Below are positions 11,242 to 27,010 of a stretch of 64,000 nt of DNA, one piece after another. The notes beneath the pieces were generated by a model. That model saw nothing but the letters and a program-made list of their open reading frames with translations. It was not told the DNA's origin and made no database searches. How positions within the stretch are numbered: the first letter of the stretch is position 1; each line of letters opens with the position of its first letter. Where the stretch lies: positions 101,830 through 165,829 of IMG/VR virus record IMGVR_UViG_3300010383_000113. One strand, written 5' to 3'. Made by a program: the position numbers and the translations under genes. Source of the stretch: a virus. Taxonomy: Duplodnaviria > Heunggongvirae > Uroviricota > Caudoviricetes.

Positions 11242-11251
11242 GAGAATCCTT

Positions 11252-12282: not shown

Positions 12283-12391
12283 CAGCGGGGCCGCCGTGCC
12301 TCACGCATTCCGCGTTCGCCTCCGCCGGATTCTGCGGCGGGTTCGAAAGGGACGGCCGGGCGAGGAGCGTGTCCAGGCCCGGCCGCGTGCG

Positions 12392-12667
12392 TCACGGGAG
12401 GAAGGTGCCCTGGTTGGGGCCGTGGCCGTTGGGGGCCAGCTCGACCTGGGCGGGCCGATTGCTGCGGGCCTGCTCATAGGCGGCGAAGTCGGCGAGGACG
12501 CCGTTCAGCGTGGCCAGCGTCATGCCGGTGTCGCGGAGGATGCCGTCCTTGTCGAACAGCCCGGCGGTCCGCTTGAAGAACCAGAGCAACTGGTTGATCA
12601 CGAGCTTGGCGGCGGCGGTCTCGGCCTCGGCGGCGTCGATCAGGTCTTGCATTTCTTCTTCAGTCAC
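12392..12667 (-). CDS. hypothetical protein
   Basis: 91 aa ORF; two GC hairpins downstream at 12330-12391. Confidence 0.4.
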   Translation of the reverse strand: MTEEEMQDLIDAAEAETAAAKLVINQLLWFFKRTAGLFDKDGILRDTGMTLATLNGVLADFAAYEQARSNRPAQVELAPNGHGPNQGTFLP

Positions 12668-13142
12668 TTCGGATCTCCAGGCTGTTTTCGTCTCGGGGTG
12701 GCGGGTTGAATTTGACCATGCGTGGGGCCGGAGCCCTGAATTTCGTCATCTTTTCGGGGGTGCGGACGATCGGCTCGGGCTTTTGCCATCCATCCTCTTG
12801 GAGGATCTCCTCGACCAGGGCCCACACATCCAGGATTCTAGGACATGAGGAAAAGTTCTTGGCGGCCCTCTTGGCTTCGAAGCGGCGGAGACGCTCGGCG
12901 TCGCGGTCGCTGTAGATGTGGTCGGACGTGGCGACGTGGGGATCACGAGACGGACGGTGGCTCATGACGGGCGGCTCCTGGATGTTCGGCGTCGAATCCT
13001 TCGTCGGACCCTGCGGTCTGGCTGATCGTGAGATGGCATCCTCCTCATGGATGTGCCGCCACTTTATGCGAGAGCGTCCTTGCACGCAAGCAAAATGCGG
13101 CTTCGACGACCGTTTTCGAAAAGAAACGGGAGGGGGTTCCAT
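12660..13142 (-). CDS. hypothetical basic protein
   Basis: ATG at 13142 preceded by GGAGGGGGTGCAGG and a promoter-like element. Confidence 0.35.
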   Translation of the reverse strand: MEPPPVSFRKRSSKPHFACVQGRSRIKWRHIHEEDAISRSARPQGPTKDSTPNIQEPPVMSHRPSRDPHVATSDHIYSDRDAERLRRFEAKRAAKNFSSCPRILDVWALVEEILQEDGWQKPEPIVRTPEKMTKFRAPAPRMVKFNPPPRDENSLEIRSD

Positions 13143-13162
13143 CCTGCACCCCCTCCAGTTAT

Positions 13163-13191
13163 ATTATAGGATACGAACTCTCGCCTGTCAG
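13163..13191 (-). promoter_or_regulatory. putative sigma-70-like promoter (minus strand CTGACA-N17-TATAAT, extended GTATCCTATAAT)
   Basis: 45-nt intergenic gap; 17-nt spacing. Confidence 0.4.
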
Positions 13192-13658
13192 CGAGGATCG
13201 ACTCCGACATAGAACCGCTCATACCCCTTGGGGATCATGGCGGACGGGATCACCTCGCCGGTCTTCCAGTTCTTGGAGTACGGCATGGTGGTCGGAGTGC
13301 CCATCACCATGTTGGGGATGCCACGCGGACCCGACTGGTCCGGCCTGAACGTCGGGCCGCCGATCTTCGGTGCCCTTCCCTCCTGCACGGCCGACATGGG
13401 GGTCCGCTTCTCTCTCGGGCGTCCCGCCGAGGCGTCGACGGCGGCCTTGTAGGCCTCGACCCGCCGCATGGACTCCATCTCGGCCATCATCTGGCGGGCC
13501 ATGGCCTCGTCGCGGGCCTGCTGGTTGTGGCGGGCGTAGGCGGCCCGCTTGCGGGCCATCCGCTCCTTCACACTCTGGGGCTGGGACTGGGCCCGGACGT
13601 CGGCCCCGACCAGGACGGCCGAGGCGGCGACGACCAGGGCGAGGATGCGATGCTTCAT
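13188..13658 (-). CDS. secreted hypothetical protein
   Basis: signal peptide MKHRILALVVAASAVLVGADVRA. Confidence 0.5.
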   Translation of the reverse strand: MKHRILALVVAASAVLVGADVRAQSQPQSVKERMARKRAAYARHNQQARDEAMARQMMAEMESMRRVEAYKAAVDASAGRPREKRTPMSAVQEGRAPKIGGPTFRPDQSGPRGIPNMVMGTPTTMPYSKNWKTGEVIPSAMIPKGYERFYVGVDPR

Positions 13659-15061
13659 CAGGACTCCTCCGTTTCGGATTCGGGTTTCCGGGGCTTGCGG
13701 GGACGGCCCGGCTTCTTGGCCGGCACGCCGTCCTTCTGCTGCTTATAAGCCTTCCAGCGGCCCTTGTCCACTCCCAGCGTGCTCGCACTCAGGATCTCGA
13801 TGAGTTCCGCCGGGACTCCGTCGACTTTCTCGAAAAATTCGCCGTCGGGCTTTTTGAGGGGTTGGTCCTTGCGGAACATGTCCGAGAAATAAGATTTGGC
13901 GAACTTGTACATGTCGCGACGCTTGTCCTCGGCCGACGTCCCCTCCAACTCCCGGTCGAAGACCAGGGAGGCGTGCTCGACCATCCGCTGGAGTTCCTCG
14001 TCGATCGGGTCGTCGTCCATGCCGATGGCGGCCAGCCTCCAGGCGAAGCAGTTGGCGATGCCGCAGATCATGTGGGAGCCGTACCGGGTGCCCCCCTTCG
14101 AGGTCGGCGACAGGGCCGAGCCCGGCATGAAGAGACGCTTCTCGGAGTTGGGGTTGGCGGGGTCGGACGGCTCGCCGCGTTCCTCCAGCAGTTGGTAGGC
14201 CTGGACGTAACGCTCGGCCAGCCATTCGGGCGACCTCTCGAAGTGCATCGCGATCAGGCTGCCGCCGTACACCGTGGTCGCCAGCGACGACGAATTGTCG
14301 GCGATGAGGGAGGCGTACTGCACCTTGTTCATGGCGGCCTCGTCGAACGTGACGAAGTTGCCCAGGTGGCTCCGCGTGTCCTTGGCCAGGAGGTGGACGG
14401 TCTCGGTGGCGTGCTTCACGACGGGCAGCTTCTCGTCGTCGTAGTCGCCCGACGCGATCGACATCGACTTGACGAGGTTCCGGCTGGCCGCCTTGCCCTT
14501 CTGGAAGTTCAGGAAGTCCTGGGGGAGGTGCTTGGGCGACAGCGACAGCTTGATGTTGATCGGCAGGGCGTCGATGCGACGCATCAGGTCCTCGTCGCCC
14601 TGGGCCTCGGCGAAGAAGAGTTCGAGGGCTTGGCGGCGATGATTGGCGTCGGGCAGGGGCAGTTTGCGGTCGGTCGTCGCCGTCACCTTGACCCAACGGG
14701 GCCCGCCCTCCTCGGTCGGCTCGGAATACTTCAGCCTATTGAGGTGCCAGTCCTCGATCGCCACCTCCCAGGTCGTGGGCGTGTAGGTGTCGTCCTTGAT
14801 GGCTTCGAGCAGGGCACGGACGTGGGCCTTGGTCGTCTTCCGCTGCCACCCGCCGAGTTTCTCGTAGTCGTACTCGCGGACGTAGATCAGACGCTTGAGG
14901 TAGCCGAACGGCACGACCATCGAGCTGAAGGGCCGGTCCTTCTCGGGGTCGTCGGTGACGTTCCAGACGTAGACGGGCCCGTCGAGTTCGAACGTCTCGA
15001 CCTTGGGGACCTCGGCCTTCGGCTTCGTCTTCGGCTTGGCGGGGGTCTTCGCGGCGGCCAT
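13658..15061 (-). CDS. DNA-binding protein with ParB/DGQHR-like core and C-terminal AT-hook
   Basis: 467 aa; N-terminal PAKPKTKPK; GWQRKTTKAHVRALLEAI and LPLPDANHRRQAL resemble DUF262/DGQHR signatures; C-terminal KKPGRPRKPRKP AT-hook. Confidence 0.45.
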   Translation of the reverse strand: MAAAKTPAKPKTKPKAEVPKVETFELDGPVYVWNVTDDPEKDRPFSSMVVPFGYLKRLIYVREYDYEKLGGWQRKTTKAHVRALLEAIKDDTYTPTTWEVAIEDWHLNRLKYSEPTEEGGPRWVKVTATTDRKLPLPDANHRRQALELFFAEAQGDEDLMRRIDALPINIKLSLSPKHLPQDFLNFQKGKAASRNLVKSMSIASGDYDDEKLPVVKHATETVHLLAKDTRSHLGNFVTFDEAAMNKVQYASLIADNSSSLATTVYGGSLIAMHFERSPEWLAERYVQAYQLLEERGEPSDPANPNSEKRLFMPGSALSPTSKGGTRYGSHMICGIANCFAWRLAAIGMDDDPIDEELQRMVEHASLVFDRELEGTSAEDKRRDMYKFAKSYFSDMFRKDQPLKKPDGEFFEKVDGVPAELIEILSASTLGVDKGRWKAYKQQKDGVPAKKPGRPRKPRKPESETEES

Positions 15062-15173
15062 GCGGCCCTCCTCGTGGATGATCGTGGGTGCGGCGGGCCG
15101 CGTCGAGCGGACGCCCTACACAATCAATCTACGCGGAGCGGCGAAAAATACAAATTGGATTTCGAGTTTTTCT

Positions 15174-15446
15174 TCAGTCCTGGATCTTGGACTCGATCTC
15201 GGCCTTCAGGTCGCCGACCTCGGGAGGGGCCATGCCGATCGCCACGGGCCCGTCGATGACCTTGTAGGCCTTGAGCGTGAGCGACTTCCACTCGGCGGAT
15301 TCCTTGACGGCCCGCTCGTACTCCGCCCCCGTCACGATGTAGCCGGCACCCCAGGCCAGGACGACGGCCACGAGGACCGCGATGGCCCCGCCCTTGTTGA
15401 CCCAGTCGTACAGCCCGTTCGCCACCGTCTGATTCACGTCAGGCAT
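15174..15446 (-). CDS. small membrane protein (single TM)
   Basis: start MPDVNQ (ATG about 15444-15446); TM AIAVLVAVVLAWGAGYIV. Confidence 0.45.
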   Translation of the reverse strand: MPDVNQTVANGLYDWVNKGGAIAVLVAVVLAWGAGYIVTGAEYERAVKESAEWKSLTLKAYKVIDGPVAIGMAPPEVGDLKAEIESKIQD

Positions 15447-15648
15447 GGACAGTCCTCTTCCCTCGGCATTCCCGGCAGACCTTCGCGTAGCGGCAACGCC
15501 GACACCCCGACGTGCCCCCGCATCCCGAACATACGCCGGTGCCCTCGCACTCGGGGCATTCGAAGGGGGAAGCCGCCACGGGGATCGCCGCCAGGGCCTC
15601 GGCCAGGGACGAACAGGACGGGCAATGGCAGCGGGCCTCATTCGCCAC
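15439..15648 (-). CDS. DnaJ-type zinc-finger (CxxCxGxG) mini-protein
   Basis: CPECEGTGVCSGCGGTSGCRRC; ATGA coupling with upstream gene. Confidence 0.45.
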   Translation of the reverse strand: MANEARCHCPSCSSLAEALAAIPVAASPFECPECEGTGVCSGCGGTSGCRRCRYAKVCRECRGKRTVHA

Positions 15649-16024
15649 GGCGGGCCCCCTCGATCTTGTGGGCCAGGTCCTTCACCTCGTTGGCCACCAG
15701 GGCCAGGCCCGACGTCATCTCGTGGACCTGGTCCCGCGTGTCCTTCGCAAGGCTCTCGATCTGGTGCTGGAAATTCTGCGACACGTTGGTGATCTGGGCC
15801 TGGAAGCTGTTCGTGAGGGCCTGGACCTGGGCCTGATGGTTGGCGATCACCGTATCCATGCGGGCGTTGTTCTTGTCGACCGCAGCCTGGTCCTTCGCGT
15901 CGCGTTCGTTGAGGTAATACCGGAAACCCCAGAGCATCAGGAGGACGACGCCGACGGTGCCCCCCTGCTGCCAGACGTGGACCATGTCGCCGAAACCGCC
16001 GGTCACGTTCGCCAGGATGTACAT
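15638..16024 (-). CDS. membrane-anchored coiled-coil protein
   Basis: N-terminal TM VGVVLLMLWGF then Q/A-rich heptads. Confidence 0.5.
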   Translation of the reverse strand: MYILANVTGGFGDMVHVWQQGGTVGVVLLMLWGFRYYLNERDAKDQAAVDKNNARMDTVIANHQAQVQALTNSFQAQITNVSQNFQHQIESLAKDTRDQVHEMTSGLALVANEVKDLAHKIEGARRGE

Positions 16025-16100
16025 CGTCTCGCCCTTCGCACTGGAGGAAAATGTATTCCCGCCGACGCGGCGGCGACTCCCCTATTGAATACCCCTGGCG

Positions 16101-16694
16101 TCAACGCCTAATAAAACCTAGCACTTCGTCGGGATACAGCTTCTCGACGTCGAAGCACATCCAGCGTTTGTGGTGGTTGAACGAGGCGGAGAAGGCGATC
16201 TCGTCGAGGTATCCGAGGACCCCGTCCATGTCGTCGAAGAAGAGTTCGTGGGGCAATTTCCCGAACAGCCAGTCGGGGATCGCCGCCTTGCCCTGCTTGC
16301 ACCAGACCAGGACGGGCTTCTTCTGGTCGTTGGCCCGGGAGATCTCGTCGTAGGTGCCGCAGGCGTGGACGTCAAGGTCGACGAGGGCCACCAGGAAGTC
16401 GGAGACGTTGACCATCCGCAGGTCGATGGCGTGGATCTTCTTCATGATCGAGGCGAAGTCGTCGTAACCGGCCGGGCCCTTGAAGGCGTGGCGGGCCTTT
16501 CGGCTCTCGTCGTCCTCGTGGGCCTCGTCGATCGGCTTGTCCATCGGGTCGAGCACGACGATCCCGCGACGGTGGAGTTCCGGGGTGATGCGTCGCCGCC
16601 ATTCGCGGCCGGAATTCGGGCATCGGTCGATGGGGCCGGCGAGGTAGGCTCTCTGGCCCAACAAACGCGAAACGGTTTTCAATTTCCTGGACAT
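16101..16694 (-). CDS. nucleoside 2-deoxyribosyltransferase-like protein
   Basis: start MSRKLK (ATG about 16692-16694); AYLAGPIDRCPNSGREWRRRITPELHRRGIVVLDP resembles the NDT family N-terminus. Confidence 0.5.
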   Translation of the reverse strand: MSRKLKTVSRLLGQRAYLAGPIDRCPNSGREWRRRITPELHRRGIVVLDPMDKPIDEAHEDDESRKARHAFKGPAGYDDFASIMKKIHAIDLRMVNVSDFLVALVDLDVHACGTYDEISRANDQKKPVLVWCKQGKAAIPDWLFGKLPHELFFDDMDGVLGYLDEIAFSASFNHHKRWMCFDVEKLYPDEVLGFIRR

Positions 16695-16734
16695 GATTTC
16701 TCCAACGAGGGCGATCCGGTCAAGCCACAACCTG

Positions 16735-16750
16735 TACGTAGGACGGGATC
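16735..16750 (-). promoter_or_regulatory. putative -10 element CGTCCTACGTA upstream of 16694 start
   Basis: cgTCCTAyAAT family member. Confidence 0.25.
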
Positions 16751-16830
16751 GGCCGCCTGCGGCGGCGGAGCAGGGAGGGCTGGGCCTGTGCGTTGCGGCG
16801 ACGTCGTCATGTCCCCCACTCCCTGCTACT
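16751..16830. repeat. hairpin GCCGCCtgcGGCGGC fused to GGAGCAGGGAGGGC, and inverted partner CCCCCACTCCCTGCTACTC 33 nt away
   Basis: direct reading. Confidence 0.6.
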
Positions 16831-17002
16831 CTTCTCCGTCCGGGCTGATCAGGATGGGGGCGACGATCTCTCACGAGGGTCGCGGAGCCGATCCCCGGGG
16901 CGGCCTTCCGGGGGAGGAGCAGGGAGTTCGGGGGAGGGGAAGATTTTCCACGCGGCTTGGCACGAGAGAACGGCACCGTTTTTGCTATTAATACTTCTTG
17001 GA

Positions 17003-17030
17003 AGCTTTATTGCCCGAAGGGCATAAAGCT
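17003..17030. other. stable stem-loop AGCTTTATTGCCC-GAA-GGGCATAAAGCT in AT-rich patch
   Basis: 12 bp stem with one bulge and GAA triloop. Confidence 0.4.
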
Positions 17031-17494
17031 CCAAGAAGAAGAAAGGTATGCCTCCCTCTCCCCTCCGAGCTTCTTTCCGGAATTCCCAAAGTTTTTTCCG
17101 AGATCGCCGCCCTGCCCTCCCGGCCCGTCCCGCCGCCGGTCTTGATGCGAGGCGTCCTAGAATAGTTATACCGGGGCACTGGGTCATGATGCCGCCGTCG
17201 GGATGTGGGTCCAGCCGAGACGAGTCGACCGTCGAGGCCGTTCCTGGGGTGCCCGAAACCAGTTCCGCGTCCCAGACGCCGGGTTGATCGAGAGATCGCC
17301 ACGCCGTCCGGTCGCGACGTTCGAGGATCCGAGCCTGTCAACGCGGCGTCCGACTGAGACGCCCGGCTCGGCCCGTCCGTCGCGTCGGCCCGGCGGGGTA
17401 GTCTCCCTCGGTCGGCCCGACGGATGGAGACGCGGTTGACCATCAAGACGACTCTTCAACGTGATGACAAGTGGATTTTTAGAAGGAATTTCTC

Positions 17495-19282
17495 GTGGCC
17501 GATTGTCAGACCTGGATGTTCAACCCCGGCAAGCCATGCTGCGGCGACGACGGACTCAAGTGCGGCGTCCCCCTCTTCCCGGGTGACACGCCGAACACCT
17601 GGATATACTCGCCCGTCGCCTCGGCTTCCGTAGCGGGCCGTGGGAACGTGTCCCTGGCCTTCAGGTACGCCCCTGACGGGAATCGGGGCTACTGGCGATC
17701 GTCCGTCGTCCGGTTCGACAGCGACCATGTCGTGAAGGTCGATCGTGATGGGAACCCCGTCTCGATCGGCCCCGGCGTCTCCGGCTTCCGGATCTTCTTC
17801 CGTGGGTCGTCTCGCAACCCCCTCGGGTACGAGGCCCAGCTCGTCTACATGACGGCCTTCAGCCCCCTCGACCCAGCGACCGGCGAGCCGTGGCCGAATC
17901 CCACGTCGATCAGCCAGGGGTTCCTTGACGTCGGCAGCAGGTATTTCCGGATCGACGGGCCCGTCGTCGACGGCGGTGATCCCTTCTCGTTCTTCGGCAT
18001 GAAGCGTGAGTATGAACCGGGTGCCGATGGGCCTTCGTTCGGCGTCTCCGCGTCCGGCCTCTTCGTCGGCACCTCCTTCGGATCGATCGCATTCAACTCC
18101 GCTTTGACGAGACCCGTCGGATCGTCGATCAATTACGGCGGCACGCCGAGGTTCTTGGCGTCCTCTCCTCCGACCGTCGCTTCAAGTTTCGGAGTCTCAA
18201 CCCAGACGGCCGACGCGAGCGAATGCTGCCGTCCATGGTGCCAGACCTGCCAATGCTTCCTGGATTACTTCGCCACGGTGGACGACGGCAACGGAGTCTG
18301 GTGGCTCAATCGGACGAACACGCAGTCTGGCATCGCCGGGGGTAGGAACGTCTACACGGGGAGTGGATGGAAGCACACCGGGCTGTTCTACCCGGACTAT
18401 CCTGGTTCGACCAAGTTGTTCGAGCGTTTCAGTAATTACGACTTCAACGTCTACTGCTGCGGTGATTCCATCAAGCTCGCCGTGCAGTACAACCTCTACG
18501 AATACGGCGTTGGGCTTGGCGGGCAGACCATCATCTACACGCGGAACATGGTGCCCTTGTATAAGCAGTTCGTCCTAACGGGCGACCCCGGTTCCGGTCA
18601 GATGTCGCTCGAACCGATGGATGGCGTCTACACACAGAACACCTACTCGCCGCCGAGCGTCCGGGACGCCTGCACGAACCTCGTCAAACTCGACGTCGAT
18701 GCCTACAACGCCCTCTACTCGAACAACCAGACCTTCCCTCACACGATGTTCGTGCTGGACCATGACGGCGGTCCGAACATGCCGGTCACCGGCGGCACGG
18801 TCGCCATCCGGACGATGGACCAGCGTCGTGTCGTGTGCTGTCGCTATCCCTTGCCGAAGAAGAACCTCGTCCTGAGCTGGACCCACCCCGAGATCGGCGA
18901 CGGATCCGTGAGGTTGATCTACAACGGCGGCGACCAGATATTCACGGCCGGGTGGGTCGCCGAGTCCGTCGTGCAGACGAGCGTGCCGTTCCCGGCCGGG
19001 ACTTCGTGTGCGGGTCGTCCGGCGGGATTGAAGTTCATCCTCGGATGCGGAGGCCTCGGCTACCAGCCTCATTCCACGGACGGATGCTTCAGCACGGACA
19101 CGTCATCCCTGCTCGAATTCCACCCCTATCCGGTCGCCACGACGTCGGAAGACCTCCTCTTCTGGATCAGCAGCCGCCCCCTCGTCATCGAATGGCAGAA
19201 GTATTGGCGTCCCGAACTGGGTACTCCCGTGCCCTCGTTCTTCTCTCAGCTCGGCTTCACCAGCCTGACGATCACGGAGTGA
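17495..19282 (+). CDS. large Gly/Ser/Cys-rich hypothetical protein (possible structural or adsorption protein)
   Basis: 595 aa; GTG 17495 or ATG 17516; CCRPWCQTCQC, YCCGDS; only long plus-strand gene. Confidence 0.5.
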   Translation: MADCQTWMFNPGKPCCGDDGLKCGVPLFPGDTPNTWIYSPVASASVAGRGNVSLAFRYAPDGNRGYWRSSVVRFDSDHVVKVDRDGNPVSIGPGVSGFRIFFRGSSRNPLGYEAQLVYMTAFSPLDPATGEPWPNPTSISQGFLDVGSRYFRIDGPVVDGGDPFSFFGMKREYEPGADGPSFGVSASGLFVGTSFGSIAFNSALTRPVGSSINYGGTPRFLASSPPTVASSFGVSTQTADASECCRPWCQTCQCFLDYFATVDDGNGVWWLNRTNTQSGIAGGRNVYTGSGWKHTGLFYPDYPGSTKLFERFSNYDFNVYCCGDSIKLAVQYNLYEYGVGLGGQTIIYTRNMVPLYKQFVLTGDPGSGQMSLEPMDGVYTQNTYSPPSVRDACTNLVKLDVDAYNALYSNNQTFPHTMFVLDHDGGPNMPVTGGTVAIRTMDQRRVVCCRYPLPKKNLVLSWTHPEIGDGSVRLIYNGGDQIFTAGWVAESVVQTSVPFPAGTSCAGRPAGLKFILGCGGLGYQPHSTDGCFSTDTSSLLEFHPYPVATTSEDLLFWISSRPLVIEWQKYWRPELGTPVPSFFSQLGFTSLTITE

Positions 19283-19284
19283 AC

Positions 19285-19722
19285 ATGAAGTGCGATCACT
19301 GTCCGGTCGCCCGAGGAGGATCGTGCCGTGGAGAACGGATCAAACGATATTGCGAGTTGTCCGACCCGGCCCGCAAGGACTACGACCCCACCTACGTCGA
19401 CTTCTTGATCGGGGATGCGAAGCAGGGAGGGGTTGGGCCCGGCCCCTCGTTCCTCAAGAAGGCCGCCAACTTCGCCAGGGCCGCCGTCAAGCACGCGGCC
19501 GACGGGTTCGGCGTCGTCCCGGACGAGGTCCGCGAGGCGAGGCTGGCCAGATGCCGCCCATGTCGCTTCTACGACGACGGGACGTGCCGGCACGAGGAAT
19601 GCGGCTGCCACCTGGAGACGAAGGCGTCCTGGGCCTCCCAGGCCTGCCCGATCGACGAGTGGGGCCCTCATGAGGTCGACGGCCCCGGGCATGGCTGTTC
19701 CTCGTGCGGGGGTGGGCGATGA
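19285..19722 (+). CDS. cysteine-rich putative metal-binding protein
   Basis: MKCDHCPVARGGSCRGE..CRPCRFYDDGTCRHEECGCH; the ORF-track upstream extension overlaps 17495..19282 in another frame and is rejected. Confidence 0.5.
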   Translation: MKCDHCPVARGGSCRGERIKRYCELSDPARKDYDPTYVDFLIGDAKQGGVGPGPSFLKKAANFARAAVKHAADGFGVVPDEVREARLARCRPCRFYDDGTCRHEECGCHLETKASWASQACPIDEWGPHEVDGPGHGCSSCGGGR

Positions 19723-20381
19723 AGATCTGCTGCGTTTCCGATCTCCACGGCCATCTGCCCGAGATCCCCGACTGCGACCTCCTGCTCCTCGGCGGCGACC
19801 TGGTCCCGAGGTGGGCCCACGAGCCTCTCATCGGCCGATCCTGGCTCGACACGAACTTCCGGCGATGGCTTGACGGTCTAACGAGTCGGTGTCGCGTCGT
19901 CGGCGTGGCGGGCAATCACGACTTCGTCTTCGAGGCCGGGATGGGCGATCTCGCACGCCCCCTGCCCTGGACCTACCTCCAGGACTCGGACTACACAGTC
20001 GGTGGCCTCAAGGTCTACGGGAGCCCTTGGCAGCCCTACTTCGGCGGATGGGCGTTCAACCTCGAAGAGGACGACCTGGCCGCCAGGTGGGAGATGGTCC
20101 CGGGCGACGCGGACATCCTCCTCCTGCACGGCCCTCCCTATCTCCATGGCGACTTGACGCCCGAGGGCCTCCATGTGGGCAGCCCCTCCCTGCTCCGATC
20201 CATCCGGAGGGTCCGACCACGCCTGGTTGTTTGCGGACACATCCATTCGGCTCGCGGCGTCTACGAGGTCGGCGTCACGACGATCGTGAACGCCTCATTG
20301 GTCGACGAGGCCTATCGGCCCATTCATGAGCCGTTCCTGGTCGAGATCGACGGCGACGAGGCCGAGGTCCTTCGGGTGTAA
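19719..20381 (+). CDS. metallophosphoesterase (calcineurin-like)
   Basis: VSDLHGH, GGDL, GNHDF, GHIHSARG; ATGA overlap with previous gene. Confidence 0.7.
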   Translation: MKICCVSDLHGHLPEIPDCDLLLLGGDLVPRWAHEPLIGRSWLDTNFRRWLDGLTSRCRVVGVAGNHDFVFEAGMGDLARPLPWTYLQDSDYTVGGLKVYGSPWQPYFGGWAFNLEEDDLAARWEMVPGDADILLLHGPPYLHGDLTPEGLHVGSPSLLRSIRRVRPRLVVCGHIHSARGVYEVGVTTIVNASLVDEAYRPIHEPFLVEIDGDEAEVLRV

Positions 20382-20383
20382 AC

Positions 20384-20426
20384 GAAAAAAGCCGCAGAGG
20401 TCGTGCCCCTGCGGCTTGGTTCTTCA
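20384..20426. terminator. bidirectional rho-independent terminator between convergent genes
   Basis: AAAAAA-GCCGCAG-loop-CTGCGGC-TTGGTTCTT; a U-run follows the hairpin on both strands. Confidence 0.6.
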
Positions 20427-21194
20427 GTCGATGATCTCGGCGATGGCCACCTTCATGCTGGCGGCGGCGGTCTCGTAGGCCTCGGCCGACTCCTTGGGGT
20501 TCAGCTTGAGGCGGCGGCCGATCTTGGCGAGGGACTCGGGCTCCTCCCGGTCGATCCCGAAACGCCTCACGAGGAAGTAGCGTTCGGCGGGGTCGATGCG
20601 ATGGAGGCCGTCCCGGACCAGCTTCACGACGCCGTCGCAGCCGATGTCCGAGGGGTCGGCCTCGTCCTCGTCGGCCACGTCGAGCCTGGTGCCGTCCTCT
20701 CGCGGCGAGTGGAAGGAGGCCGTCTTGCGAGACGCCAGCACGGCCACGATGGCGTCGTACTCGTCCGACGACAGGTCGAAGGACGACATCGCCTCCTCCT
20801 TGGTCGGACGGCGGCCGTTCTCGTCCTGGAACCAGCGGACGAGCCGCTGAAACTTCAGGATGGTCTTGCTGGCGTGGACGGGGACGCGGATCAGGGTGCC
20901 GTTGCGATAGATCGCGTTCTGGATGGCCTCGACCACCCGGAACTTCGCGTGGGTGGAGAACCGGGCCTTGCCGGGGTCGAAGTCCTCGACGGCACGGCAG
21001 AGGCCCAGCATCCCTTCCTGCATCAGGTCCTCGCGTTCGACGCCGCGTCCGACATATGTACGGGCGACGGCCCGGACCAGGGGGATGTGCTTGGCGACCA
21101 GGTCGGCTTTCGACGTGGGCCGGCAGTTCGTGTCGGCTTCGACGCCGCAACCTTCGAAAAAACCACGTTCCTCTTCCAGCGTCAGGTAGGCCAT
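20424..21194 (-). CDS. sigma-70 family sigma factor (group 3-like)
   Basis: region 2 DLMQEGMLGLCRAVEDFDPGKARFSTHAKFRVVEAIQNAI; region 4 YFLVRRFGIDREEPESLAKIGRRLKLNPKE. Confidence 0.7.
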   Translation of the reverse strand: MAYLTLEEERGFFEGCGVEADTNCRPTSKADLVAKHIPLVRAVARTYVGRGVEREDLMQEGMLGLCRAVEDFDPGKARFSTHAKFRVVEAIQNAIYRNGTLIRVPVHASKTILKFQRLVRWFQDENGRRPTKEEAMSSFDLSSDEYDAIVAVLASRKTASFHSPREDGTRLDVADEDEADPSDIGCDGVVKLVRDGLHRIDPAERYFLVRRFGIDREEPESLAKIGRRLKLNPKESAEAYETAAASMKVAIAEIID

Positions 21195-21205
21195 GCGAGG
21201 TTCTC

Positions 21206-21472
21206 TCAGGCGTGGATGTCGGTCAGGAGGTGGGGGAGGCGTTCGATCTGGTGGCCGTAGGTGCCGGTCTGCTCTTTCAGCGGGTCGACGATGACCAGGC
21301 GGACCTTCTGGTTGTCCGAACCGGGCTTGCCGGTGATCTTCCCGATGTAGATCTCGATGGGGCGTCCGGTCGAGGGGGGGACGAGTTCGATGCCTTCGTT
21401 CAGCTTCCGTTCGATGACGAGTGCCAAGCGGATTCTCCGTGCGTTCGATGCGTTTCCATGTGCGGTCTCCAA
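21206..21472 (-). CDS. hypothetical protein
   Basis: 88 aa ORF. Confidence 0.45.
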   Translation of the reverse strand: METAHGNASNARRIRLALVIERKLNEGIELVPPSTGRPIEIYIGKITGKPGSDNQKVRLVIVDPLKEQTGTYGHQIERLPHLLTDIHA

Positions 21473-21497
21473 GTGCCGGGGCCGGGCCCCTATTCAG

Positions 21498-21510
21498 AAT
21501 ATAGGACAGA
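21498..21510 (-). promoter_or_regulatory. putative -10 element TGTCCTATATT in 75-nt intergenic gap
   Basis: cgTCCTAyAAT family. Confidence 0.3.
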
Positions 21511-21548
21511 AGGTTTCGTGTTCGTGCGATCAGGAGTGCGTGATCATC

Positions 21549-21802
21549 TTAGGCGTGAAACGGCACGATGCAATAGGAATCTTCGAGATGTCCGCATGTC
21601 GATGCCAGTTCAGCCTTTCGGCAAGCCTCGCGGTAGGACGGGAATCGGGTGGCGGTGGCGGGGTCGGTCGTGAACCGGGTGCCCCAGACGTAGGAGGCGA
21701 TCGGGCGGCGGGGGTTGTCGACGCGGATGATGAGCGATTCGGCCATCGGGGTCTCCGGGTGAAAGTTCGGCGGACCCCTGTAATGTAGGACGAGCGGATC
21801 CA
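21549..21802 (-). CDS. hypothetical small protein
   Basis: ATGATG at about 21797-21802 lies 4 nt after GGAGCAGGGAGG; an alternative start MAESLII (about 21740) is preceded by CGTCCTACATT and GGAG. Confidence 0.35.
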
Positions 21803-22639
21803 TCATCCGGCCTCCCTGCTCCTCTGCCCTCCCCCTTTGGTCATGAGATGGTGACGGGCCAGGTCGAGGATCGTGATCGCCGCCGACTCCGGGAGGTCGG
21901 GGTGGACGATCTTCACCTCGACCGAGGCCTTGTACGCGGGCGTCTCGACGGGGATGATGAACTTGGAGACCTTGCCCTTCAGGAGGGTGGACTCCTTGGG
22001 GTTCTCGGCCCTGGCGACGCTGTAGGCTTTCGTCAGGCTGATCTTGCCCTCGATGAGCTGCTGCCTGGTCGTCTCGTTCAGCTTCAATATACTCAGCATC
22101 TTCGAGACGTGTCCGGCGGAAATCCCGATTTTCTTGGCGACCTGATCCTGGCTCATGCCGAGCTTGTCCATCATGGCCTTGTAGGCCTCGGCCTGCTCGA
22201 CCGGATTGAGGTCTTCGCGGGTGCAGTTCTCGATGAGCTGGTCGACCAGCAGGTTCCCGTCGTCCAGCTTGCTCGTCTCGATCAGGGCCTCGATCGCCGT
22301 CACGCCCGCCATCCGGCAGGCCTGCCAGCGACGCTCCCCGGCGATGATGACGTAGTGTTCGAGCAGGTCGTCCCACCGGACGCGGATCGCCTGGAGGAGC
22401 CCCCGGTCGCGGATCGTGTCGGCCAGGCGTTCGAGTTCGACCTGGTCGAATTGCTTGCGGGGCTGGTTCGGGTCCGGCTTGATCCGGTCGATCGGGATCA
22501 GGCCCGAGTTCTTGAGCTTCTTGACGCCCTGATGCTGGGCGGACCTGGCGGGGGCCGGCGTGGCGGCTTCGGCCGACGCGGCCTCTTCGAGCCCGGCCCC
22601 CATCGACTCGGCCATATGGTCTTCGTTGAACCTGCTCAT
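21803..22639 (-). CDS. parB: ParB partition protein
   Basis: IIAGERRWQA (ParB GERR box), HTH region; start MSRFNEDHMAESMG near 22639. Confidence 0.75.
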   Translation of the reverse strand: MSRFNEDHMAESMGAGLEEAASAEAATPAPARSAQHQGVKKLKNSGLIPIDRIKPDPNQPRKQFDQVELERLADTIRDRGLLQAIRVRWDDLLEHYVIIAGERRWQACRMAGVTAIEALIETSKLDDGNLLVDQLIENCTREDLNPVEQAEAYKAMMDKLGMSQDQVAKKIGISAGHVSKMLSILKLNETTRQQLIEGKISLTKAYSVARAENPKESTLLKGKVSKFIIPVETPAYKASVEVKIVHPDLPESAAITILDLARHHLMTKGGGQRSREAG

Positions 22640-23439
22640 GCCGCGATCTCCCCGTTTCCGTTCGTGAGGATGCGAAGCTCGATCTCGTTGGCGAGGTCCC
22701 CCACCGCCTCGTGGGCCGCCGACTTCTTCTTGAAGTGGCAGATGGGGGTCCGGCCGACCACGGCCTCCTTGAAGGCCGAGGCGTTGGGGATCGTGGTCAG
22801 CATCACCCGCTGCTTGTACGTGTTCCGGAGGAGTTGGTGGAACTTCTGGTGGACGGCCAGTTGGCGGTTGTATTGCGAGATGAGGTAGCCCAGGAGGGTG
22901 GGAGGGCCGCCCCGGATCTTCTGGGCCTTGGCGATGGCCTGGTTGACCTCGAAGATGCCCTGAGTGCCCAGGTCCTCGGGCTGGAGCGGCACCAGGACCC
23001 AGTCGCTCGCGATCAGGGCCGCGTGGGTCGTGAAGTCGAGCGACGGCCTCGTGTCGATGAGGACGTAGTCGTAGTCGTCGCGGACGTCGTCGAGGAAGTC
23101 CTTCAGCGACTCTTCGCCCTCGTGCCACTCCTCCTCGGCGGTCCGGTCACGCTTGATGACGTCGCGATGGCCGGGCAGCAGGTGGAGGTTGTCGAAGCCG
23201 GTCGGGTGGATCACGGACTCGTCGACGATCTCGTCCGAGTAGACCTGGTCGATCGACCGTTCGCGGGGCAGGGCGTGGAGGCCCTTCGGCCCCCAGAACA
23301 ACTGGGTGAGGCTCGACTGGGAGTCGTTGTCCACGACGAGGACTTTCCGGCCTCGTTGGGCCAGGACGCCCCCCAGGTGGAAGCAGGTGGACGTCTTGCC
23401 GACGCCCCCCTTGAGGTTCGTGACCGCGATGATGGGCAT
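22636..23439 (-). CDS. parA: ParA partition ATPase
   Basis: deviant Walker A KGGVGKTS, VDNDSQ; ATGA-coupled to parB. Confidence 0.8.
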   Translation of the reverse strand: MPIIAVTNLKGGVGKTSTCFHLGGVLAQRGRKVLVVDNDSQSSLTQLFWGPKGLHALPRERSIDQVYSDEIVDESVIHPTGFDNLHLLPGHRDVIKRDRTAEEEWHEGEESLKDFLDDVRDDYDYVLIDTRPSLDFTTHAALIASDWVLVPLQPEDLGTQGIFEVNQAIAKAQKIRGGPPTLLGYLISQYNRQLAVHQKFHQLLRNTYKQRVMLTTIPNASAFKEAVVGRTPICHFKKKSAAHEAVGDLANEIELRILTNGNGEIAA

Positions 23440-23549
23440 GACGATCGGGCTCCGGTTAGATGGTGATCACCACCCTTCTTATCGGAGCCGTGCCCGTGGG
23501 CCTGCAAGAAAAACGGGAGGAGCAGGGGGTGGTGTCGTCCCGGCCCCGT

Positions 23550-23728
23550 CTTTCTCGGAGAAAGTTGCCGGCCGCCCTCGCCGTCACGGTCCCCGGCGGG
23601 GCGATCTTTCCTCAAGAAAGGTCCGGCTGTGCGGCCTCTGATATGTTCGATCGACCCGTCTTTCTCGAAGAAAGATCGACCTGCGGCGTGCCGGCCGGCC
23701 CGTCGGACGACGCCTTTCTTGAGGAAAG
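23550..23728. repeat. centromere-like array: four 15-bp palindromes CTTTC-N5-GAAAG at about 55-bp spacing
   Basis: CTTTCTCGGAGAAAG (23550), CTTTCCTCAAGAAAG (23606), CTTTCTCGAAGAAAG (23660), CTTTCTTGAGGAAAG (23714); immediately upstream of parA. Confidence 0.6.
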
Positions 23729-23738
23729 ATCGCCCGTT

Positions 23739-23767
23739 CGCCCTCCCTGCTACGCGGCGAAGCCGCC
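23739..23767. repeat. motif-hairpin module CGCCCTCCCTGCTAC + GCGGCgaaGCCGC
   Basis: direct reading; flanks the parS array opposite GGAGCAGGGGGTGG at 23512-23530. Confidence 0.6.
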
Positions 23768-23780
23768 GAGGGTCGCGACC

Positions 23781-24311
23781 TCAGACGTGCTCGTAGATGT
23801 CGCCCAGGTCGAAGTGGCCGTAGACGACGCCGTCCAGGTCGATGGGCACCGGCTCGCCGGGACGGTAGTCCTTGACGCCTTCGAGCGAGGTTTCCTGGAG
23901 TACGCCCTCGATCGGGTCGATCATCCAGTGGGTCCTCAATCCGCTTCGAAGGTAGATTTGCCTGCCGACGACGATGCGTTCGTGATTCGATCGCGAGGCC
24001 ACGTCGATGACGAGCCCGGCGTCTTTGGCGTTGATCGCCCGATGGTCGGTCCCTCGGCAGACGAGGACGGCCGGCACGTAGACGTTGTAGGGGTCGCAGA
24101 AGACCCATTTCTCGCGATGCGACGCGGCCGTCCAGAGGGACGGGTCCAGGCTGTCTTCGACGAGGTGGACGAGGCGTTCCGCGATGGAGTCGACCGTGAA
24201 GCTCTGGAGCAGGAGGTGGGGGACGCCCCGGAAGAGTTCGACCTGGTTGCTCCGGGTCTCGTCCCTGTACCACCCCAGGCCGATCGTCTGGATGAATTGG
24301 CGGGCGTCCAT
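23781..24311 (-). CDS. Uma2-family (DUF820) putative endonuclease
   Basis: start MDARQF; DVASRSNHERIVVGRQIYLRSGLRTHWMIDP matches the Uma2 C-terminal pattern. Confidence 0.5.
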   Translation of the reverse strand: MDARQFIQTIGLGWYRDETRSNQVELFRGVPHLLLQSFTVDSIAERLVHLVEDSLDPSLWTAASHREKWVFCDPYNVYVPAVLVCRGTDHRAINAKDAGLVIDVASRSNHERIVVGRQIYLRSGLRTHWMIDPIEGVLQETSLEGVKDYRPGEPVPIDLDGVVYGHFDLGDIYEHV

Positions 24312-24340
24312 CCGGTACGGGGAGTAGGGGCGTGCCGGCG

Positions 24341-24803
24341 TCAGGTAGTCTCGACGCCGAACCTTAACTGGTGGTCGCTCAGGTCGCAGTAGCCCTTCAC
24401 CTTCGTGTGCTTGCATACGGCCCTCATGAAGTACCAGGCGTCGGCCTCGTGGGCCCGTTCGTCGTGCTCCATCCCGAGTCCCCGGAGGGCGTCGAGGCAC
24501 CTCTCCGTCAGACGATAGGCGGATTCGCCGGCAGCCGCAAGGCGAGGTACGGCCAGCCAGTCGTCCGGGGGGAGCCCGATCGGCCCCGGCTCCTCGGAGG
24601 CGGTGAGGACGACGCGGCCGTCCGGAAGCGGGATGAAGTCGAGGACCATCTTGGCGATGATCGTCCCGACGCGGAATTTTCTCGGGCCGTAGGGAGACGT
24701 GGCCGGTTCGGCGTAAGGCCCGACGACGGACTTGGGATCGAGCAGGCGGCCTCGACGATCGAAGGGGAGGGCGACCCCGCCGAGGTCGACGTAGCCCTTA
24801 ATG
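24341..24803 (-). CDS. hypothetical protein
   Basis: probable GTG start VTRIKGY overlapping the upstream stop. Confidence 0.35.
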
Positions 24804-25190
24804 CGTGTCACTGAGGTGCCCGATCGGCTGGAAGATGATGAGTTTCTGTCTGCGGACCGTCTTGCAAACCATGCTGAACGGCAAGGAGTCGACAGGGGCG
24901 GTCGTAAATGGGTGTACGGCCCGATCATGATCCGGGCCCAAGATCCAGCGAACGATCCCCTGGCCGTCGAGTTCCTTGAGCTTGGCTCGGTTGAGGCCGA
25001 ATTTGCTGTCGGTCAACAATTCCCCAACGCGATCGAAATCGAAACCCTCGGACACCCAGATCAGGGCGAACAGCGTTTCGTCTTCCTCTAGCAGTTCTAC
25101 CAGGTCGCCATAAGTCTTAAGCGGGTGGAGCATCTCGATCTCCGAAGGATTTCGTTCGTCACGGTGGCCCGTCGTCCCCACGAAGATCAT
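24798..25190 (-). CDS. hypothetical protein
   Basis: 130 aa ORF. Confidence 0.4.
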   Translation of the reverse strand: MIFVGTTGHRDERNPSEIEMLHPLKTYGDLVELLEEDETLFALIWVSEGFDFDRVGELLTDSKFGLNRAKLKELDGQGIVRWILGPDHDRAVHPFTTAPVDSLPFSMVCKTVRRQKLIIFQPIGHLSDTH

Positions 25191-25205: not shown

Positions 25206-26606
25206 CTAGCGGGGCGTGTTTCCCCGATTTTCCAGGATGTAGCGAATTATCTTCTCTCGCAGGGCTGCCGACTTCAGCGTCTTCCGCCATCCAGCCTTCC
25301 TCGGCTCCGCATGCTCATTATCAATATCTCTGAATGTCAGTTCAAGTTCGTTTTTGTAAAGTTCCTCGACTTTCTCGGTAATTTCACGTCGCACGGCATC
25401 CGACATCTTCGACCAGATCCTCTCGGCGACCGCTGAATCGTCGAGTTTTGACTCATGATTGGCACCATCCCGTCCGACATGAATAGTTGTACGCACCCGA
25501 GATGAGATGTCAACGGGCAGTCGGTGGAAACCTCCCGGAATCGCACGAACGACATATCCTGCCAGGCTTCTCTTGATTTCCCCTTTTGACTGCATTTCCC
25601 GTGCCACCTTCACGGTGTGCAGGATGTCGTCCTCGCGATGCTCGGCGGCCAGCTTCTCGGCGGCCTGGCGGGCGACACCGCACTCCAGCAGGGCCCTCAA
25701 CCCCTCGGAGGCGGGGGCCTGGACGGGGAGGGGAGGAGCAGGGGGGGTCGAGGGGAGGGTCGCATTTCCGGCCCGGACGACGACGCGGACGTCCCAACCC
25801 CCGTCGGGCCTCTTCCTATAACGCCCCTCGGGGCCGGGTTGTTCCAGGAATCCGACGGATTCAAGCTGTGCAAAACCCGGGCTGAGCTTCTGTTTGATCT
25901 GGCCGGCGTCGAGCTTTTCACGCCCCATCATCCCCATCTTGTCGAACGCGAAGCTCCGAAGGTCATAGGCCTGCTCCAGGGAGCCGACGTGGGCCTGCCT
26001 CCCGAGGTAGCGGAACATGTGCTTGGCGAGGGGCTTCGAAATCCGGCGATACGTCTCGAAGTCGAACTCGCGGACGTTGCCGGCCCGCAGGCTGTTGAAC
26101 ATCCGGCTGTCCCAGGTGACCTCGTAATACGATCGCCCCCTGCTCCCGGCCCCCTTGCCCTCCACGAAGTTGCCGATCACCTGGAAGTGGGCGTCCTCCA
26201 GCACGCCCGTCGTCTTGTTGAACCAGGCGTTCTTGAAGTCGAGCAGGACGAGCCGCCACAGGCTGATGGAGGCTTGCAACCTCTCATACGACCACCCCTG
26301 CTTCCTCCACCCTATCAACTTGATCATTTCCGTAGGGGTGAACGAGAATGCGGGCGTCTCAAATCCGTCGATCCGATGATGCAGCGTAATCAGACCCAGG
26401 ATCACTTCCTCGTCGACCGTGGACGGGAGGTTCAGGCTGCCGTTGACCGATATCGTGAAGGACCTGACGACGGGCTGGCCCGTGATCGGGTGCGGGATCC
26501 GGTCCTGGTAGGTCACGGACCTGGCCCCGACCATCTTCTCGCTCGCGGGGAAGCACATGGGGAAGTCCGACATGTTCAACTCGTCGCGGCCGGGGTCCGT
26601 CGTCAT
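25206..26606 (-). CDS. repA: replication initiator protein (RepA-like)
   Basis: 466 aa; sits directly between an AT-rich inverted repeat and an eight-copy iteron array, and next to parAB; assignment is by context plus weak family resemblance. Confidence 0.5.
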   Translation of the reverse strand: MTTDPGRDELNMSDFPMCFPASEKMVGARSVTYQDRIPHPITGQPVVRSFTISVNGSLNLPSTVDEEVILGLITLHHRIDGFETPAFSFTPTEMIKLIGWRKQGWSYERLQASISLWRLVLLDFKNAWFNKTTGVLEDAHFQVIGNFVEGKGAGSRGRSYYEVTWDSRMFNSLRAGNVREFDFETYRRISKPLAKHMFRYLGRQAHVGSLEQAYDLRSFAFDKMGMMGREKLDAGQIKQKLSPGFAQLESVGFLEQPGPEGRYRKRPDGGWDVRVVVRAGNATLPSTPPAPPLPVQAPASEGLRALLECGVARQAAEKLAAEHREDDILHTVKVAREMQSKGEIKRSLAGYVVRAIPGGFHRLPVDISSRVRTTIHVGRDGANHESKLDDSAVAERIWSKMSDAVRREITEKVEELYKNELELTFRDIDNEHAEPRKAGWRKTLKSAALREKIIRYILENRGNTPR

Positions 26607-26612
26607 CCGGGT

Positions 26613-26660
26613 CTCCTGTTGTTGATTCTTTTCGAAAGAACATCAAACAAACAACAGGAG
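26613..26660. promoter_or_regulatory. AT-rich inverted repeat at repA start (operator or DNA-unwinding element candidate)
   Basis: CTCCTGTTGTT..N26..AACAACAGGAG with internal TTCTTTTCGAAAGAA. Confidence 0.45.
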
Positions 26661-26710
26661 CGGACGTCACGATCCGCAAATGCCGTTTGTTCCGCTACTT
26701 ACGATGGACG

Positions 26711-26883
26711 CCTACTCGGTTTGACTCCAAATCCTACCCGGGATGACGCCAACCCTACCCGATTTGACTCCAGATCCTACTCGGGACGACTCCAAGCCTA
26801 CTCGGTTTGACTCTTGGGGTTCCTACCGCCTTTGACTCCAGACCTACCCGAGATGACTCCAAAGCCTACTCGGTTTGACTCCA
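26711..26883. repeat. iteron array: eight tandem 21-22 bp direct repeats, consensus CCTACYCGRKWTGACTCCA (putative oriV)
   Basis: direct reading; two-helical-turn periodicity; adjacent to repA. Confidence 0.7.
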
Positions 26884-26907
26884 GGGCGACGGCGTCCGAG
26901 AGCATGG

Positions 26908-26951
26908 TAACAAGAAAGCCCCGCACCAGTCCAGGAGACTGATACGGGGCT
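26908..26951 (-). terminator. possible terminator for the minus-strand gene ending at 27011
   Basis: AGCCCCG-21 nt loop-CGGGGCT followed by TTTCTTGTT on the minus strand. Confidence 0.3.
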
Positions 26952-27010
26952 GCTATTAGGCTGGGGTTATGGCGGTCGCCCGGCCCGGAGGACGCATCCC
27001 GTATGCGGGA

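Follow-up and report, generated by a model that had tools for sequence, protein, structure and literature searches.

What does a plasmid-type origin of replication do in a genome that otherwise resembles that of a large bacteriophage? This question is raised by a 64,000-nucleotide stretch (hereafter, the window) of the 171.7-kb (171,667-bp) contig in IMG/VR record IMGVR_UViG_3300010383_000113, positions 101,830 to 165,829, which contains a 466-codon gene, rep, preceded by an AT-rich palindrome and a cluster of direct repeats (iterons). The region 25206-26951 is very probably a theta-type replicon of the RPA family under iteron control. With a candidate centromere (parS) and the genes parA and parB (21803-23728), it constitutes a plasmid-maintenance module like those found on plasmids of Isosphaeraceae and other planctomycetes. 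The replicon is a divergent member of a type already described for planctomycete plasmids; what goes beyond the known is the phage-like host genome, the nature of which is unproven, and a promoter-region element, CAACAAC, that appears to be conserved among these replicons. The replicon consists of the following elements.

25206-26606, minus strand: rep, encoding a 466-aa initiator of the RPA family, with an ATG start (Pfam, homologs, fold prediction)
26613-26617, minus strand: Shine-Dalgarno sequence AGGAG, inside the rep-proximal palindrome arm, 6 nt upstream of the ATG (read from the sequence)
26613-26660, minus strand: AT-rich palindrome with the inner near-palindrome TTCTTTTCGAAAGAA (inverted-repeat search, GC content, alignment with relatives)
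26661-26710, minus strand: 50-bp spacer from the last iteron to the palindrome, holding AACAAACGG...
26711-26883, no strand assigned: iteron array, eight copies of 19 bp, consensus CCTACYCGRKWTGACTCCA on the plus strand and TGGAGTCAWMYCGRGTAGG in the rep sense
26917-26951, minus strand: terminator-like hairpin 3' of the upstream gene, with 16 pairs, 9 of them G-C, and a T-rich tail (terminator scan; inverted repeat I3)

The Rep protein has a single match in a Pfam scan, to RPA (PF10134, replication initiator protein A; 25.8 bits, E = 9.7e-6, amino acids 50-212), and the same domain is listed for it in the precomputed annotation of the protein collection in which homologs were sought. A sequence search retrieved 11 homologs of Rep (E from 3.7e-41 to 2.8e-17, 26-32% identity), all with PF10134, and a profile search of the same collection retrieved 67 proteins, all but one of which (66/67) carry this domain. 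In the full hidden Markov model (HMM) search, RPA-family representatives numbered 4920 among 1.84 billion. Against the family profile, which was built from an alignment that includes Rep itself, the protein scores 585 bits. Rep retains 15 invariant family positions, across 62 sequences, as well as the conserved N-terminal motif GRDELN..FP. The preliminary description of this locus, made from the sequence alone, had called the gene RepA-like; the Rep-family HMM search matched RPA and no unrelated family. When plasmids were searched with tblastn, Rep matched genes annotated as 'replication initiator protein A', at 26-29% identity, on planctomycete plasmids (Isosphaera, Singulisphaera, Paludisphaera, Aquisphaera, Frigoriglobus, 'Planctomyces' SH-PL62 and one Isosphaeraceae isolate). 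More distant matches came from plasmids of Manganitrophus, Rubrobacter (annotated as TrfA) and Deinococcus.

The predicted fold of Rep is the tandem winged-helix (WH1-WH2) arrangement of iteron-binding initiators. In the AlphaFold2 model (mean predicted local distance difference test score 83.8; 62-sequence alignment), WH1 (approximately amino acids 30-165) and WH2 (approximately 183-277) are followed by a proline-rich linker and two C-terminal helical domains (301-358 and 384-459); the linker and the two extra helical domains are conserved across the Rep family. A Foldseek search with this model matched RctB at 3.5e-9 and then RepE54-iteron complexes, with the complex of Rep and the DNA-unwinding element (DUE), 8ac8, among the matches, and the model also fold-matches Pi. 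For Rep, sequence-profile searches of the PDB returned no significant match. A list of Pfam domains found in winged-helix initiators includes RPA (bioRxiv 10.1101/2024.09.03.610885). The window's lowest-GC 48-mer (29% GC, 25316-25363) lies at the 3' end of rep, in the part encoding a C-terminal helical domain, and no repeats were seen there; on some planctomycete plasmids, repeats occur inside or downstream of rpa (10.1101/2024.01.22.576637).

Upstream of rep, eight direct repeats of 19 bp occupy 26711-26883, the interval given in the preliminary description, and Tandem Repeats Finder detects a period-21/22 array with a 43-bp super-period. Allowing up to three mismatches, the consensus given originally, CCTACYCGRNWTGACTCCA, has eight matches across the window, all inside the array, against 0.34 expected, and none of 100 shuffles reached eight. 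The iterons start at 26711, 26733, 26754, 26776, 26797, 26822, 26843 and 26865, that is, at spacings of 22, 21, 22, 21, 25, 21 and 22 bp, or about two helical turns. Every copy has the same bases at positions 1-5 (CCTAC), 13-15 (GAC) and 17 (C); mismatches number three in copy 6, two in copy 5 and none or one in each of the other six. Two subtypes, ..CGGTTTGAC.. and ..CGGGAYGAC.., mostly alternate, which accounts for the super-period. The gap between the nearest iteron and the rep ATG is 104 bp, in agreement with the distance of about 100 bp given originally. The longest open reading frame (ORF) in the 404-bp stretch 26607-27010 is at most 42 aa, so that the repeats are non-coding. Based on these sequence features, we propose that the iterons are the binding sites of Rep monomers and the core of oriV. 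In the adjacent spacer, AACAAACGG... could pair, imperfectly, with the distal palindrome arm (inverted repeat I1, 19-nt arms, 74% complementary). Rfam and tRNA searches yielded nothing relevant.

The palindrome, CTCCTGTTGTT-N26-AACAACAGGAG, has two 11-nt arms (26613-26623 and 26650-26660) that are 100% complementary and flank a 26-nt loop. Such a 48-bp AT-rich palindrome had been noted before; its GC content is 37.5%, not 35%, within the lowest 0.13% of the window's 48-mers, and it ends 6 nt upstream of the rep ATG, outside the coding sequence, rather than overlapping the gene start. Perfect inverted repeats with arms of 11 nt or more and loops of up to 40 nt are found at only two loci in the entire window, of which the palindrome is one; the other such hairpin-type repeat (44702-44762) has 13-nt arms and a loop of about 35 nt. 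Read in the rep sense, the palindrome contains a -35-like hexamer, TTGTTT, then 18 nt, a -10-like AAGAAT, CAACAACA and GGAG of the Shine-Dalgarno sequence, followed after 6 nt by the ATG, and the two arms lie over the -35-like hexamer and the start-site/Shine-Dalgarno region. The hairpin z-scores of the palindrome are -3.05 as an RNA leader and -4.95 as single-stranded DNA.

Most planctomycetal plasmids encode an RPA initiator beside a putative iteron origin and a type I partition system (bioRxiv 10.1101/2024.01.22.576637). Among the relatives of rep compared here, repeat arrays lie upstream of the gene in all 11 (4-11 repeats of about 15-24 bp, at spacings that are multiples of approximately 11 bp), and the order of array, AT-rich promoter-like segment, CAACAAC and rep recurs in these 11. 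The arrays include the following.

pPL62-3: seven 22-bp tandem copies upstream of rep, of two alternating subtypes, with a 44-bp period
pISOP01: eleven copies of 21-22 bp upstream of rep
pPL62-1, pSINAC01, PALBO1 and pOJF2_1: 7-9 copies of CGATTAACCGGACATAC upstream of rep
pPL17-1: seven repeat copies upstream of rep
pPL62-2: five repeat copies upstream of rep

Each replicon group has repeats of its own sequence, as would be expected of specificity determinants. In three metagenomic plasmid-like contigs, the rep homolog is divergent from a ParA gene, and the spacer of about 650 bp between the two contains GGTGAAAYGAGACAG in 4-8 copies, spaced 22, 33, 55 bp and the like. In pPL62-3 (L006, 3672-3810), the subtypes ..ATACTCCGGGG.. 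and ..ATATCGCGGGG.. alternate, so that the 44-bp super-period mirrors the 43-bp pattern of the window; iteron arrays may grow by duplicating repeat pairs. A homology of iterons perceived by eye, TGGAGTCAAACCGAGTAGG versus TAGAGTGAAACGAGACAGG (L003/L004), was rejected, given that a gapped weight matrix missed the window iterons and that shuffled sequence scored higher. A two-iteron DNA pattern had no matches in metagenome contigs or in viral contigs, and the single genome-contig match (L008, 5440-5870) was attributed to chance: it consists of chromosomal REP-like palindromic repeats (GTCAGCCCGAGTAGCCGCC...) next to haem and cobalamin genes in a metagenome-assembled genome.

The features of planctomycetal RPA replicons are thus all present in the window: a repeat array, a GC dip before rep and CAACAAC before the start codon. 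The planctomycete plasmids pPL62-1, pPL62-2, pPL62-3, pISOP01, pSINAC01, PALBO1, pOJF2_1 and pPL17-1 resemble it in encoding a homologous initiator of approximately 470-510 aa with the same domain order, in the position of the array 100-300 bp upstream of rep, in the AT-rich segment and CAACAAC, and in ParA and ParB of the same lineage. The window differs from these plasmids in that its Rep is only 26-29% identical to theirs and has a short N-terminus, with the ATG 5 residues before GRDELN, and in that its iteron sequence is unrelated. The replicons also differ as a whole: that of the window is part of a phage-like genome of approximately 172 kb, whereas the RPA plasmids carry metabolic or tetratricopeptide repeat (TPR) cargo.

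The CAACAAC motif emerged from the present comparison, in which upstream regions were anchored on rep, and is an unpublished criterion; it is not mentioned in the text of the planctomycete plasmidome preprint (10.1101/2024.01.22.576637). In the rep sense, it precedes the likely start of rep in each of the 12 planctomycetal relatives compared (L001, L003, L004, L006, L007, L009-L014 and L099) and in the window, both strands of which together contain just 12 copies of this 7-mer over the 64 kb. In 11 of the 12 relatives, the motif lies 13-225 nt from the annotated start. In the remaining one, L004, it lies 35 nt inside the called N-terminus, and the annotated start (P0006) looks misplaced, as does that of pISOP01 (L007), a TTG that follows the palindrome at a distance of approximately 190 nt. 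A Rubrobacter plasmid has part of the motif (AACAACAGGAAATG), and the Manganitrophus and Deinococcus relatives lack it. In most relatives, CAACAAC is part of a palindrome, CAACAACA-N10..21-TGTTGTTG, with an AT-rich promoter-like segment upstream, and in pPL62-2 this palindrome shows a two-sided (compensatory) change, CAACAACC/GGTTGTTG. RNAalifold assigns the relatives' CAACAACA...TGTTGTTG element -0.67 kcal/mol, a value obtained from arms that are almost invariant and offer little covariation to judge. The promoter-like segments themselves are comparable: pPL62-1 and its relatives have TTGTTT-N18-TAGAAG-A-CAACAACA, parallel to TTGTTT-N18-AAGAAT-CAACAACA in the window, and pPL17-1 has TATAAT, AAA and CAACAACA. 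The window palindrome hence carries the conserved promoter-proximal motif of the family, with the complementary arm located upstream, across the 26-nt spacer and over the -35-like hexamer, instead of downstream as in the relatives.

Because the palindrome of the window contains the promoter-proximal motif of its relatives, the sequence comparison argues that the AT-rich element would be, first of all, the promoter and control region of rep. Its mode of action could be any of three, which are not mutually exclusive and can hold together. A DNA operator, with arms bracketing the promoter, is the favoured reading, at roughly even chances. The palindrome could also serve as the unwinding region, possibly with strand-specific Rep contacts like those in the Rep-DUE complex 8ac8; we regard this as clearly less likely. 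A leader hairpin that sequesters the Shine-Dalgarno sequence, if transcription starts upstream, appears less likely still. Because the arms are conserved while the iterons vary, what reads the palindrome would be either a host factor or a portion of Rep that is itself conserved, rather than the iteron-specific surface. As a secondary reading, the CAACAACA palindrome may be a clade-wide control element of these replicons.

The partition module lies on the same strand, downstream of rep.

21803-22639, minus strand: parB, encoding a 278-aa centromere-binding protein (Pfam ParB_N, 2e-21, and HTH_ParB, 1.9e-18; TIGR00180 above the cut-off)
22636-23439, minus strand: parA, encoding a 267-aa Walker-type partition ATPase (Pfam AAA_31, 1.7e-40, and CbiA; NCBIfam ParA_partition and RepA partition models)
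23550-23728, no strand assigned: four 15-bp palindromes CTTTC-N5-GAAAG, spaced 54-56 bp, directly upstream of parA

The ATG of parB overlaps the stop codon of parA (ATGA), which indicates translational coupling of the two genes. The palindromes start at 23550, 23606, 23660 and 23714 and are all four of the matches to CTTTC-N5-GAAAG in the window, against 0.08 expected; the array is a candidate centromere (parS) and/or par operator. A search for canonical parS gave no relevant result, and the three small ORFs downstream of rep had no family matches. An apparent kinship between these palindromes and the inner palindrome TTCTTTTCGAAAGAA of the rep control region was dismissed as coincidence, the spacing of the half-sites (CTTT to AAAG) being N3 in one case and N7 in the other. 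With a Walker-type ParA, a ParB containing ParB_N and helix-turn-helix (HTH) domains, and an array that presumably functions as the centromere, the locus has the composition of a type I ParABS system. The best plasmid matches of ParA are on Isosphaeraceae plasmids (45% amino acid identity to pPL62-3), the ParB gene has nucleotide matches to ParB genes of Isosphaeraceae plasmids, and the best matches of both reside on the same Isosphaeraceae plasmids as RPA initiators. Judging from these similarities, the whole maintenance module appears to descend from planctomycete plasmids, with an Isosphaeraceae-like planctomycete as the probable host. Identities of 26-45% point to an old divergence rather than a recent capture.

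The mechanism that we infer from homology and anatomy encompasses DNA binding, origin firing, autoregulation, the unwinding site and lifestyle. Rep monomers would bind the eight iterons via the tandem winged-helix domains predicted for this protein, and the 21-22 bp phasing would place all iterons on one face of the helix. The Rep-iteron complex would then melt adjacent DNA, for which the 48-bp palindrome, 50 bp away, is the candidate, and recruit the host helicase and replisome. A promoter of its own, lying within the AT-rich palindrome, would drive rep, with the terminator-like hairpin shielding both the origin and this promoter from read-through of upstream transcription. Acting as an operator or leader hairpin, the palindrome would limit Rep synthesis, and pairing between iteron arrays occupied by Rep would keep the copy number in check. 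The copies would be segregated by ParA together with ParB bound at the four CTTTC-N5-GAAAG palindromes. Because the surrounding genome resembles that of a large bacteriophage, the most likely role of the module would be the maintenance of a low-copy plasmid prophage, as in P1.

The gene content of the window bears on this proposed role. A codon-position GC screen delineates approximately 90 genes, almost all on the minus strand, and 50 window proteins were scanned for family matches, 21 of which matched PHROG families. Genes of nucleotide metabolism include those for the large and small subunits of ribonucleotide reductase (RNR), dCMP deaminase, ThyX, a nucleoside deoxyribosyltransferase-like protein and dUTPase, and further genes encode a Dam-type methylase, R2K ATP-grasp, an SPFH protein, phosphoesterases and HNH endonucleases. 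Large phages characteristically carry a repertoire of this kind (RNR, ThyX, dUTPase and others). IMG/VR contigs include relatives of the RNR genes (55-76% identity), and these contigs share only nucleotide-metabolism genes with the window, without further synteny. The source contig, a singleton in the protein collection, did not turn up in scans of IMG/VR and of metagenome contigs, and exact-protein look-ups of Rep and of the protein encoded at 61211-61747 matched no record.

Several observations weigh against one or another part of this interpretation. The Pfam score of Rep is just under the curated cut-off of 27, no NCBIfam model matches the protein, and a weight matrix built from 20 relatives' iterons does not rank the window iterons among its top matches. 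At the origin, DnaA boxes are missing near the array (TTATCCACA with at most one mismatch has three sites in the window, against 5.3 expected, none of them within 5 kb), as are repeated 13-mer-type unwinding motifs, and the AT-rich stretch, the sole one in the intergenic region, is merely 48 bp long at 37.5% GC and lies 50 bp from the array. The cumulative GC skew rises without reversal at 26.7 kb, with only a local dip over 25-27 kb; the missing reversal may reflect the orientation of the genes on one strand. In the control region, no sigma-70 consensus promoter passes the scan, the palindrome arms (CTCCTGTTGTT) are dissimilar to the iterons, in which respect they differ from the operators of F and pPS10, and the arm order is everted, TGTTGTT...AACAACA in the window versus CAACAACA...TGTTGTTG in the relatives. 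With regard to a phage, none of the 50 window proteins falls into the head/packaging, tail, lysis or integration categories of PHROG, and no repressor or integrase was identified in the window. Relatives of Rep are absent from 50,697 phage records (INPHARED), and none was found among IMG/VR contigs with either a single protein or an alignment as the query, by a method that needs shared exact peptide words and that distant relatives may escape.

The plasmid-type, iteron-controlled replication module proposed in the preliminary description is nevertheless borne out by the RPA match, the tandem winged-helix fold, the location of the repeats in intergenic rather than coding DNA, the layout shared with 11 relatives and the nearby ParA-ParB. 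The check that the preliminary description named as refuting, a protein of an unrelated family together with repeats conserved as coding sequence, was carried out and did not overturn it. The theta-replicon layout that it outlined stands with respect to the iterons and rep; the role of the palindrome as a DNA-unwinding element is not established, the relatives fitting a rep promoter/operator or leader better. Less secure, too, is its proposal of a phage-plasmid, for which the phage-like auxiliary genes are the support; the 50 scanned proteins include no match to a virion, packaging, lysis or integration family.

This last gap is where the alternatives come in. The element could be a large plasmid or another non-viral replicon that carries phage-like genes of nucleotide metabolism and NAD salvage, the module being its ordinary plasmid replicon. 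Such an origin, which we consider a minor, albeit serious, possibility, would agree with the lack of virion-type families, with the absence of the initiator family from the phage and IMG/VR collections searched, with that of the source contig from the IMG/VR copy searched, and with the closest matches of Rep, ParA and ParB, which are plasmid genes in every case. It does not sit well with RNR, ThyX, dCMP deaminase, dUTPase, Dam, R2K ATP-grasp, the HNH endonucleases, a NAMPT gene with an insert and a phosphoribosyl pyrophosphate (PRPP)-synthetase-like gene, all typical of large phages, nor with the arrangement of some 90 genes nearly all on one strand, equally typical of such phages; furthermore, the window, which covers 64 of the 171.7 kb, revealed neither conjugation genes nor cargo genes typical of plasmids. 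Conversely, the element could be a virulent phage in which Rep and the iterons form an early origin of the theta mode, comparable to lambda O and its iterons, with no role in a plasmid prophage. In lambdoid phages, initiators that bind origin repeats also serve lytic replication, and in the window neither a repressor or integrase was identified nor a polymerase, helicase or primase gene seen. This is distinctly unlikely, considering that the coupled ParA-ParB and the candidate centromere, 3 kb away, have no obvious purely lytic role and that every homolog examined is on a plasmid or on a plasmid-like contig, next to ParA.

Two further alternatives concern the module itself. It might no longer be active, being the remnant of a plasmid fragment acquired by recombination, as could be suspected from the identity of only 28-32% to any other initiator, the degeneration of two of the eight repeats and the arrangement of the palindrome arms, unlike that of the relatives. 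However, all three genes (rep, parA and parB) are intact, rep is similar to the neighbouring genes in its codon-position GC pattern, GRDELN..FP and the 15 invariant positions are kept, six repeats have no more than one mismatch, and the Shine-Dalgarno sequence, the CAACAAC motif and the terminator are all in place, which makes decay very improbable. Least plausible of all, and hardly to be credited, is that the eight repeats are no origin and instead form a centromere or a transcription-factor array, for example the direct-repeat partition site of a type Ib or type II system. Direct-repeat arrays do serve as centromeres in some plasmids. Here, the array abuts rep and not parA, directly upstream of which there is a separate array of palindromes; ParB is of the HTH/ParB_N type, which typically binds palindromic sites; and the relatives keep the array beside rep whether parA is adjacent or distant. 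We therefore retain the iteron-regulated RPA replicon as the interpretation of the locus. The element that carries it is probably a virus. The plasmid replication and partition genes expected of a phage-plasmid are present on it (rep with the iterons, parA and parB), and membership in this class in the strict sense, for which the phage-like auxiliary genes are the sole basis, is close to the balance point with a slight tilt in favour. The chances are evenly divided that the contig represents a temperate, near-jumbo phage of an Isosphaeraceae-like planctomycete, maintained as a low-copy plasmid prophage by an RPA/iteron/ParABS module of planctomycete-plasmid ancestry.

Among known systems, the double winged-helix initiators available for comparison are Pi of R6K (2nra), RepE of F (2z9o, RepE54), RepA of pPS10 (1hkq), TrfA of RK2 and domains 2-3 of RctB from Vibrio chromosome 2 (5ubf). 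The sequence similarity of Rep to these proteins is undetectable, with 8-13% identity in structural alignments, and Rep has approximately 170 additional C-terminal residues that form the two helical domains. The origin differs from those of the respective systems in that the palindrome shares no half-site with the iterons and in that there are no DnaA boxes. Phage P1 encodes RepA, with iterons at oriR, together with ParA-ParB-parS, and follows the same functional logic. Like P1, the window combines an iteron initiator and ParABS with phage-type genes in a large genome; virion genes have not yet been seen in the window, so that its membership in the class of P1 is unproven. It differs from P1 in the RPA family of the initiator, in the presumed host phylum, Planctomycetota, and in the lack of a second iteron cluster downstream of rep, where P1 has incA.

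In Planctomycetota, the IncQ, IncP and pBBR replicons gave no replicating plasmids (10.1101/2024.01.22.576637). Because replicative vectors are lacking for this phylum, the oriV-rep cassette, which is compact (approximately 1.75 kb) and has its own terminator, is, along with parABS, a candidate for the construction of shuttle vectors. The CAACAAC promoter-region motif provides a testable handle on the control of rep in planctomycetal replicons. If the contig indeed represents a temperate phage with this module, it would be the first reported case of a phage-plasmid in Planctomycetota and also the first known case of a phage that uses an RPA-family initiator. Confirmation of the element as a virus would extend phage-plasmids to a new phylum and a new initiator family, and would show that modules for plasmid maintenance pass between plasmids and large phages beyond the well-studied enterobacterial and Firmicute cases.

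Other features of the window concern its phage-like genes and composition. The NAMPT-like gene is split, with the N-terminal part at 56626-57456 and the C-terminal part, which contains an HNH-containing (Hint/HNH-type) insert, at 54290-56080; an ORF of 206 aa (56043-56663) lies between the two pieces, and a PRPP-synthetase-like gene (58365-59657) adjoins. This configuration looks like a phage NAD-salvage or reconstitution pair that was disrupted by a homing element or an intein. There are two sigma-factor-like genes (20424-21194 and 8764-9240), one with Sigma70_r2 and the other with Sigma70_r4 and a borderline match to the ECF model PF07638, which suggest that the element redirects host transcription. 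The GC content shifts from approximately 61-67% to the left of rep (about 8000-25000) to approximately 55-63% to the right (25000-64000), with the replication and partition module at the boundary, and this step may mark a mosaic join.

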